A DNA stretch of 429 nucleotides from Escherichia coli (GTDB taxonomy: Bacteria > Pseudomonadota > Gammaproteobacteria > Enterobacterales > Enterobacteriaceae), in assembly GCF_003334255.1 (NCBI RefSeq), contig NZ_QOWU01000243.1; one strand, written 5' to 3'. Shown here piece after piece: positions 1 through 429 of the stretch. Every line of letters begins with the position of its first letter. The stretch's first letter is position 1. The notes beneath the pieces are model-generated. The model saw only the letters and a program-made list of their open reading frames with translations. It searched no databases and had not been told where the DNA came from. The position numbers and the translations under genes are program-made.

Positions 1-16
1 AATTTGAGAGACTCAC

Positions 17-34
17 GAACAACTTTCGTTGTTC
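17..34 (-). other. Predicted RNA hairpin with GNRA (GAAA) tetraloop in the pre-23S spacer
   Basis: The transcript reads GAACAAC-GAAA-GTTGTTC, a perfect 7-bp stem closed by a GAAA tetraloop (plus-strand gaacaac ttt c gttgttc). It is read directly from the sequence; no function is assigned. Confidence 0.45.
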
Positions 35-60
35 AGTGTTTCAATTTTCAGCTTGATCCA

Positions 61-75
61 GATTTTTAAAGAGCA
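61..75 (-). promoter_or_regulatory. Spacer boxA-like transcription antitermination element (TGCTCTTTAAAAATC in the transcript)
   Basis: Plus-strand gatttttaaagagca (61..75) reverse-complements to TGCTCTTTAAAAATC. This closely resembles the rrn boxA consensus (TGCTCTTTAACAA) that nucleates the Nus-factor antitermination complex. A second boxA copy in the 16S-23S spacer is a described feature of E. coli rrn operons (established knowledge). Function here is inferred from sequence similarity only. Confidence 0.6.
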
Positions 76-138
76 AAACTTCGCAGTGAACCTTTGCAGG
101 TACACTCTGAAGTATTTTTTATTTAATCACTACAGAGA

Positions 139-214
139 TGGTGGAGCTATGCGGGATCGAACCGCAGACCTCCTGCGTGCAAAGCAGGCGCTCTCCCAGC
201 TGAGCTATAGCCCC
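139..214 (-). tRNA. alaT: tRNA-Ala (anticodon UGC), 76 nt with encoded CCA
   Basis: Reverse complement of 139..214 is GGGGCTATAGCTCAGCTGGGAGAGCGCCTGCTTTGCACGCAGGAGGTCTGCGGTTCGATCCCGCATAGCTCCACCA. The anticodon loop is CTTTGCACG (anticodon TGC = plus-strand gca at 179..181). The G3:U70 alanine identity pair is present (G at plus 212, U from plus-strand a at 145). It has a T-arm GGTTCGATCC and an encoded CCA at 139..141. It matches the E. coli rrn spacer tRNA-Ala as I recall it. The gene symbol is a family label (alaT/alaU/alaV). Confidence 0.96.
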
Positions 215-256
215 ATAACATGTAGTTAAAACCTCTTCAAATTTGCCGTGCAAATT
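215..256 (-). other. Inter-tRNA spacer between tRNA-Ile and tRNA-Ala (42 nt)
   Basis: It is bounded by the tRNA-Ile 3' CCA (257) and the tRNA-Ala 5' G (214). It is short, AT-rich and non-coding, as expected for co-transcribed spacer tRNAs processed by RNase P and 3' nucleases. Confidence 0.85.

Positions 257-258
<2 letters not shown>
238..258. repeat. Tandem pair of the self-palindromic octamer CAAATTTG separated by 5 nt, abutting the tRNA-Ile 3' end
   Basis: CAAATTTG occurs at 238..245 and 251..258 with spacer ccgtg between them. Each octamer is its own reverse complement, so the pair can also fold as an 8-bp hairpin with a 5-nt loop in the precursor RNA. The copy at 251..258 overlaps the final CA of the tRNA-Ile CCA end. 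Confidence 0.4.
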
Positions 259-333
<75 letters not shown>

Positions 334-401: not shown

Positions 402-429
402 TAAGGAGGTGATCCAACCGCAGGTTCCC
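402..429 (-). rRNA. rrs: 16S ribosomal RNA, 3'-terminal fragment (gene continues beyond the window's high-coordinate edge)
   Basis: Reverse complement of 402..429 reads GGGAACCTGCGGTTGGATCACCTCCTTA, the universally conserved 3' end of bacterial 16S rRNA, including the anti-Shine-Dalgarno CCUCC (plus-strand ggagg at 405..409). Only 28 nt are present, so the call rests on this terminal signature and on the operon context. Confidence 0.93.

Follow-up and report, generated by a model that had tools for sequence, protein, structure and literature searches.

Introduction

The leader and trailer of Escherichia coli pre-23S rRNA are known to pair with each other, and this leader–trailer helix is quoted as 27 bp in a passage of PMC10250234 and given as ~30 bp in a passage of PMC8782170. 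RNase III leaves exactly seven precursor nucleotides 5' of 23S (PMC7261194). Variable leader–leader helices have been described within rRNA leader–trailer structures in the main text of PMC11404451. Per the main texts of Warner et al. 2023 (PMC10250234) and Gemler et al. 2024 (PMC11404451), such helices are local, interrupt leader–trailer pairing, vary between and within species, and are removed in maturation, as is also the case for the small spacer hairpin analyzed here; those main texts mention neither this hairpin nor the outer helix beside boxA that we predict below.

A boxB-boxA-boxC set is also described upstream of 23S (in the main text of PMC10250234, with the same order given in PMC8632103), and the rrn boxB has been reported to be dispensable (PMC8632103). 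The same spacer is the source of StyR-44 (Rfam RF01830), a discrete, growth-regulated RNA of ~109 nt that northern blots detected in S. Typhi and E. coli, though its discoverers could not exclude that it is a metastable processing intermediate (PMC2943607). StyR-44 was found again as sYJ118, which is induced by tigecycline and ampicillin, and the authors of that work themselves raised the possibility of a by-product (PMC3511261). Another likeness is to the V1 and V6 stem-loops of 16S rRNA, in which compensatory change keeps the structure while sequence, length, and often the loop vary, and to the variable hairpins of mature rRNA generally, which are modules that a fixed insertion point tolerates (cf. 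PMC8545133). Unlike the V1 and V6 hairpins, which are part of the mature ribosome, the hairpin studied here sits in a discarded spacer. Our literature search, which did not extend to older subscription literature, returned general accounts of leader–trailer pairing and of boxA, boxB, and boxC and no description of this specific hairpin.

Results

Layout of the operon and position of the hairpin

The window, i.e., the whole 429-nucleotide stretch of DNA that was analyzed, is the antisense strand of an rrnD-type E. coli rrn operon (100% identity). In our genome search, it matches E. coli chromosomes at 100% and has matches in all 5,426 complete genomes. In strain E2865, it falls in the rrnD-type operon adjoining aroE/yrdA, referred to here as locus L001, in which window position w is found at 4929−(w−1). 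Rfam and ARAGORN place on the minus strand, in operon order, the 3' end of 16S, tRNA-Ile, and tRNA-Ala, and the pre-23S spacer follows them (Table 1). The annotated 23S start, L001:4966, lies 37 nt past window position 1. With tRNA-Ala ending at window position 139 and 23S running from L001:4966, the hairpin does lie where the first-pass annotation had put it, in the spacer lost as 23S matures; from its end it is 52 nt to mature 23S and ~45 nt to the RNase III cut, with the hairpin outside.

Table 1. Features of the window and of locus L001 around the pre-23S spacer hairpin.
Feature	Window position	L001 position	Strand	Basis
16S rRNA 3' end	402..429		−	Rfam and L001 annotation
tRNA-Ile(GAU)	257..333		−	Rfam, ARAGORN, annotation
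tRNA-Ala(UGC)	139..214		−	Rfam, ARAGORN, annotation
Predicted hairpin directly upstream of boxA, distinct from the studied hairpin	78..113		−	Fold
Spacer boxA UGCUCUUUAAAAA, antitermination element upstream of 23S	63..75		−	Read from the sequence
Post-boxA block AAUCUGGAUCAAGCUGAAAAU, predicted 5' strand of the outer leader–trailer helix	44..64		−	Co-fold
Full hairpin CAC-U(bulge)-GAACAAC-GAAA-GUUGUUC-GUG, 10 bp	14..38	4892-4916	−	Fold, Rfam
Core hairpin GAACAAC-GAAA-GUUGUUC, 7-bp stem with GNRA tetraloop	17..34	4896-4913	−	Inverted repeat, fold, covariation
UCUCUCA, next leader segment past the hairpin, predicted to pair with trailer UGAGAGA	5..11		−	Co-fold
StyR-44 (RF01830), 5' part, clipped by the window end	1..71		−	Rfam, 81.5 bits
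Local partner AAAUUUUCGC of GCUGAAAAUU	7..1 plus 3 nt beyond the window		−	Rfam, MFE fold

We take the 13-mer UGCUCUUUAAAAA to be the spacer boxA on the strength of the known boxA consensus. The predicted hairpin directly upstream of it sits at the position that the literature gives to the spacer boxB, and the boxB-boxA-boxC order suggests that it is the boxB. The post-boxA block occupies the boxC slot in the same order. Further toward 23S, the UCUCUCA block is conserved across Enterobacterales.

A small hairpin near boxA with a GNRA-type loop resembles the boxB of lambda nut and rrn sites, and it could accordingly be imagined as a lambda-nut-like boxB, downstream of boxA, that takes part in assembling an antitermination complex. 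It does lie 24 nt downstream of the spacer boxA, which is the lambda order of boxA then boxB, and lambda boxB is itself described, in part of the literature on it, as taking a GNRA fold. The rrn order, however, puts boxB before boxA, and a separate hairpin fills that upstream slot, whereas the hairpin studied here comes downstream of boxA and after the block in the boxC position. In addition, it has a tetraloop instead of a pentaloop, the loop is not conserved beyond Escherichia, and a passage of PMC10250234 has the host N protein missing in E. coli. As such, we regard a boxB role of this kind as exceedingly remote.

Stability of the hairpin and its frequency by chance

A perfect hairpin had been claimed for this site, and the sequence confirms it as a 7-nt inverted repeat at window positions 17-23 and 28-34 with a 4-nt gap. 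The GAAA loop belongs to the minus strand, which is the transcribed rRNA strand; on the plus strand the loop reads TTTC (UUUC as RNA). The 18-mer has a folding energy of -7.4 kcal/mol (z = -4.8, with 2 of 200 shuffles equal), and a bulged U followed by CAC/GUG pairs lengthens the hairpin to 10 bp and -11.4 kcal/mol (window 38..14). Among dinucleotide-shuffled windows, 14.6% contain a perfect 7-bp hairpin with a loop of 3-8 nt somewhere along their length, so the stem by itself is unremarkable and the case for something beyond chance is comparative. The description of the stem as unusually clean is correct as to its form, but taken alone the stem is only mildly unusual. A perfect 7-bp hairpin with a GNRA cap is found in 0.26% of the shuffled windows.

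The hairpin is predicted to form in every context that we modeled. Its pairs have probabilities of at least 0.988 in nascent transcripts, for any 3' end between a point immediately downstream of the hairpin and 135 nt inside 23S, and likewise in the StyR-44 fragment once excised and in the co-fold of the full leader and trailer. The global fold that the first-pass annotation had proposed as a check thus leaves the hairpin in place.

Other readings of the element were set aside at this stage. An intrinsic terminator was rejected, with only 2 G-C pairs among the 7 of the stem and an empty terminator scan on both strands; neither a promoter nor a terminator was detected on either strand of the window. 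An antisense function was also rejected, the plus-strand hairpin with its UUUC loop folding slightly worse and nothing hinting at antisense transcription. Plus-strand Rfam matches to HPnc0260, OxyS, and Plastid-ycf2 were weak and fell far under their gathering scores.

The stem is kept by compensatory change across Enterobacterales

One genome per species was scanned with a pattern anchored on the spacer boxA and the block that follows it, the hairpin itself being excluded from the pattern, which yielded 120 loci from a species sample without Salmonella and Klebsiella. Between the conserved blocks, the first ending in GCUGAAAAUUGAAA and the second being UCUCUCAA, there are 20 unique Enterobacterales forms in 8 genera. 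Their sequences are unrelated, and each of the 20 folds as one hairpin, the shortest with 8 bp and the longest with more than 20 bp (z = -2.7 to -6.8).

When the 14 short forms were aligned with plain MAFFT, RNAalifold returned a hairpin with compensatory double changes in 8 of its 12 pairs. In the 8-bp core, 93.7% of alignment cells are paired vs. 72.5% in shuffles (0/500), and controls in which the partner strand was slid leave 30-61% of cells paired. Both sides have changed in 7 of the 8 core pairs, with a covariation score of 0.742 vs. 0.340, although sequence relatedness and homogenization by gene conversion mean that such counts overstate the number of independent events. In the sister species E. 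albertii, whose form is GAAUAGUC-GAAA-GAUUAUUC, two pairs have changed on both sides in a compensatory way relative to E. coli, and one pair is inserted. Comparison with orthologous spacers, which the first-pass annotation had named as a way to judge the stem, thus reveals changes that are compensatory and not disruptive.

Beyond Enterobacterales, the same site holds one or two unrelated hairpins in Vibrionales and Alteromonadales. No hairpin is present in Moritella and Aeromonas, where 11 nt and 10 nt, respectively, separate the conserved blocks, and the element is therefore dispensable in some Gammaproteobacteria. These lineages are represented by L021 (Moritella sp. PE36) and L035 (Aeromonas popoffii), compared at the spacer position that corresponds to window 14-38.

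The hairpin is a predicted side branch of an extended leader–trailer helix

Co-folds were run with the leader (from boxA to 23S nt 10) and the trailer (from the 23S 3' end to 5S) as inputs. For E. coli, they predicted about 59–64 intermolecular pairs, with the hairpin as a side branch at a probability of at least 0.998. The same architecture was predicted in 21 distinct operons, i.e., 19 operons from E. coli, Enterobacter, Citrobacter, Vibrio, Grimontia, Pseudoalteromonas, and Moritella together with one from Xenorhabdus and one from Photorhabdus. It consists of an outer helix between the post-boxA block and the trailer, one or more local leader hairpins, further leader–trailer helices, and the RNase III stem. 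In the Moritella co-fold, which has no hairpin, the leader–trailer duplex runs straight on.

The predicted partner of the block AAUCUGGAUCAAGCUGAAAAU is GAUUUUCAGCCUGAUACAGAUU, located ~36 nt past the 23S 3' end (L001:7905-7927), and the hairpin starts 5 nt after this block. Compared with shuffled trailers, the E. coli outer-helix duplex has a z of -5.4 (0/300), and the post-boxA block has a far better partner in the real trailer (beyond +25) than in shuffled versions of it, as seen in 23 distinct operons that represent 12 species in 9 genera (z = −2.2 to −7.8). The partners also covary, with GGAUCAAGCUG facing CAGCCUGAUAC, GGAACAAGCUG facing CAGCUUGUUC, and GGAAAGCUG facing CAGCUUUCC; the independent information in the outer helix comes from the trailer side, because the search pattern largely fixed the 5' strand. 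Past the published 27-30 bp, the leader–trailer architecture is a thermodynamic prediction joined to covariation seen in 12 species. On this prediction, pairing between leader and trailer of E. coli pre-23S would extend all the way to the block just after the spacer boxA.

All 59 leader–trailer pairs persisted unchanged in silico when the hairpin was removed, when its 3' arm was scrambled, or when its loop was changed, and also when the hairpin of E. albertii, Enterobacter, or Citrobacter was put in its place. By this in silico measure, the hairpin is therefore modular.

The models also point to a competition just beside the hairpin. Both Rfam and the MFE prediction for the excised fragment pair the segment GCUGAAAAUU (window 41-50) locally with AAAUUUUCGC, and this local StyR-44 stem around the hairpin competes with the long-range pairing to the 23S trailer; with the trailer present, GCUGAAAAUU pairs with GAUUUUCAGC (L001:7905-7914). 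As such, GCUGAAAAUU may switch partners, with one pairing in the leader when nascent or excised and the other in the full-length precursor.

Stable caps are favored, and the GAAA loop is confined to Escherichia

The loop of the window's hairpin, GAAA, fits the GNRA consensus. Among the Enterobacterales forms, GAAA and GAGA are confined to Escherichia, and the other genera have unrelated loops, including GCUCA in Enterobacter cloacae, UUUAU and UUUAAU in E. asburiae, GAAU in Xenorhabdus, and ACCGA, GCCGA, and GACAA in Photorhabdus. A CCGUAAUA loop is found in Citrobacter, Escherichia sp. ESNIH1, and Shimwellia. With six other loop types in other Enterobacterales, GNRA is not conserved while the stem varies. 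The long-form hairpin with the CCGUAAUA loop had no match in the 5,426 E. coli genomes.

The long-form hairpins, despite their differing stems, share a loop motif, YCCGUAAUA or CCGUAGA, at loci L107 and L115-L118 (Citrobacter), L059 (Escherichia sp. ESNIH1), L060 (Shimwellia), L025 (Serratia oryzae), and L055/L056 (Rahnella). On sequence grounds, this motif may be a conserved element.

Within E. coli, the hairpin varies little. K-12 rrnA, C, D, and E have a form identical to that of the window, rrnG and rrnH have the loop-closing C-G replaced by U·G, and rrnB has a GAGA loop; C-G to U·G and GAAA to GAGA are the sole hairpin changes among the K-12 operons. Exact 42-mer searches with these three forms in E. 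coli returned 20,469, 4,256, and 11,866 places, the last being the GAGA form. Their total, 36,591 places, compares with ~37,982 expected (5,426 genomes × 7), so nearly every E. coli copy retains the paired 7-bp stem and a GNRA loop, with GAAA or GAGA in ~96% of copies. These alleles weigh little as independent evidence, because they trace to at most two mutations spread by gene conversion.

Across the 68 unique segments at the site, 20 of the 37 tetraloops are of the GNRA (11) or UNCG (9) type, i.e., 54% vs. 5.6% in shuffles, and such caps occur in several unrelated lineages. The UNCG caps are enriched like the GNRA caps, and selection for stability therefore fits better than recognition. This points to spacer hairpins at this site being selected for self-pairing and stable caps, and not for their sequence or for a contact specific to GAAA.

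The first-pass annotation had raised the loop as a tertiary-contact or protein-recognition element, and the comparison with other lineages goes against that idea. On such a reading, the GAAA loop would dock into an RNA receptor or bind an assembly factor or nuclease and so aid 23S folding or processing. Its best points are the retention of GNRA in ~96% of E. coli copies with loop polymorphism solely from GAAA to GAGA, the GAAA kept in E. albertii despite an altered stem, and the rarity in shuffles of a 7-bp stem with a GNRA cap. Yet that polymorphism is a single event spread via gene conversion, and Enterobacter, Citrobacter, Photorhabdus, Xenorhabdus, Serratia, Brenneria, and Shimwellia do not keep the loop. 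In Aeromonas and Moritella there is no hairpin to recognize, and the UNCG caps show just as strong an enrichment although they do not engage in contacts of the GNRA type. The GAAA-receptor half-sites CCUAAG and UAUGG occur at or below chance across the operon, with none in the 23S-proximal spacer or the 23S trailer. Minor-groove docking of a GNRA loop on tandem pairs, a contact that sequence alone does not show, may still occur. Taken together, we judge GNRA-specific recognition to be distinctly improbable.

The main rival to a maintained structure is a neutral origin, in which palindromic insertions, already self-paired when they arrive, turn over quickly at a permissive site as tolerated and functionless passengers. 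The hypervariability of sequence, length, and loop between genera, the absence of the hairpin in Aeromonas and Moritella, and the intact leader–trailer pairs after in silico deletion or scrambling would all be in keeping with such passengers. Neutral passengers do not, however, account for the double compensatory changes seen in 7 of the 8 pairs and in the comparison of sister species, for a roughly 10-fold enrichment of extra-stable tetraloops, or for the pairing of extra nucleotides in each lineage that carries them at the site. Compensatory change, cap enrichment, and this universal pairing of extra nucleotides all point to purifying selection on structure, and a neutral origin is accordingly disfavored and, in our view, unlikely.

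The hairpin is part of StyR-44, which has its 3' end at the RNase III cut

The hairpin belongs to the StyR-44 family without any difference in membership, lying upstream of 23S as family members do. The RF01830 match in the window (71..1, minus strand) scores 81.5 bits and the full-length match in L001 (4859-4958) scores 106.9 bits, vs. a gathering threshold of 54. The hairpin matches the Rfam StyR-44 consensus <<<-<<<<<<<____>>>>>>>>>> base for base (a 3+7-bp stem with a 4-nt loop), and the element is found in all seven K-12 operons. What we add to the family is that its 3' end is the RNase III cut and that the hairpin is its most variable part.

The full-length match starts inside boxA and stops 7 nt before the annotated 23S, which places the RNase III cut between L001:4958 and 4959 and the hairpin, which runs to 4916, on the removed side. 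With its 3' end at the RNase III cut, StyR-44 is therefore the piece of spacer 5' of that cut. This supports the view that the StyR-44 "small RNA" is a released spacer fragment and a by-product of processing.

The hairpin could alternatively be a module of a trans-acting small RNA (StyR-44/sYJ118), e.g., as a stabilizing or protein-binding stem-loop. The discrete, growth-regulated RNA of ~109 nt on northern blots from S. Typhi and E. coli (PMC2943607) and its induction by tigecycline and ampicillin (PMC3511261) would suit such a role, as would the MFE fold of the excised fragment, which puts the hairpin at a stem-loop tip. Against this, the 3' end of the fragment is exactly the RNase III cut, its abundance follows rRNA synthesis, and both author groups left a processing intermediate or by-product possible (PMC2943607, PMC3511261). 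Furthermore, the hairpin sequence is not conserved and therefore offers no conserved seed or binding site. A trans-acting role for the hairpin is, in our estimation, highly improbable.

Other variable hairpins in the rrn spacers

A perfect 9-bp hairpin, CAAAUUUGC-ACG-GCAAAUUUG, lies right after tRNA-Ile in the spacer between tRNA-Ile and tRNA-Ala (window 238-258, minus strand; L001:4672-4692). E. asburiae has AAUUCGC-CCU-GCGGAUU at this site, with a compensatory change; other genera have long unrelated hairpins there, and Xenorhabdus has none. The post-tRNA-Ile hairpin is the same kind of variable spacer hairpin as the pre-23S one.

A second small leader hairpin lies nearer 23S (L001:4935-4945) and has two allelic forms among the seven K-12 operons (L122-L128). 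In rrnD and rrnG it reads CUCUGAAGUG, with 118 nt from boxA GCUCUUUAA to 8 nt into 23S. The form in rrnA, B, C, E, and H is of the ACACGAUGAUGAAUCGAAAGA type, with 127 nt from GCUCUUUAA to 23S nt 8 and further single-base differences.

Discussion

The analysis confirmed the hairpin as real and evolutionarily maintained, and at the same time as an ordinary and interchangeable side branch that is already catalogued in the Rfam StyR-44 family. It is likely a leader–leader helix of the pre-23S leader with a passive structural role. The leader segments on both of its sides are predicted to pair with the trailer, its stem covaries, and it lies outside the RNase III cut.

As a leader–leader helix, the hairpin would branch off the long leader–trailer helix between the spacer boxA and the RNase III stem. 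It would fold on its own once transcribed and stay folded through the synthesis of the ~2.9 kb 23S and the pairing of the trailer. RNase III would then release the spacer fragment and the hairpin with it, and this fragment is what was cloned as StyR-44/sYJ118; the hairpin probably adds to the metastability of the released fragment. Extra leader nucleotides at the junction would in this way be packed into a compact, fast-folding module, and the packing would keep a single-stranded A/U-rich stretch from mispairing with nascent rRNA or being attacked by nucleases before the leader and trailer pair. We infer a kinetic or protective benefit of this sort. Since the hairpin is missing from two lineages and its deletion does not alter the predicted equilibrium structure, any such benefit should be small, kinetic, or lineage-specific.

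The persistence of GNRA within Escherichia could nevertheless reflect something more specific than stability. It is conceivable, though very unlikely, that the Escherichia GNRA cap docks in the minor groove of the adjacent leader–trailer helix or binds an antitermination or chaperone component at boxA. If that were true, the three-way junction would be clamped, delivery of the post-boxA strand to a trailer made ~3 kb later would be aided, and the YCCGUAAUA loop of other genera would be an alternative solution to the same task.

Taken alone, the hairpin is of little importance, as it lies in the best-studied rRNA operon, has a curated Rfam structure, and falls in a class of leader–leader helices that has been described. 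The predicted outer helix bears on models in which the antitermination complex brings the leader strand to the trailer. For the design of rrn spacer mutants and for strain typing by spacer sequence, the hairpin site should be treated as a module that is free to vary.
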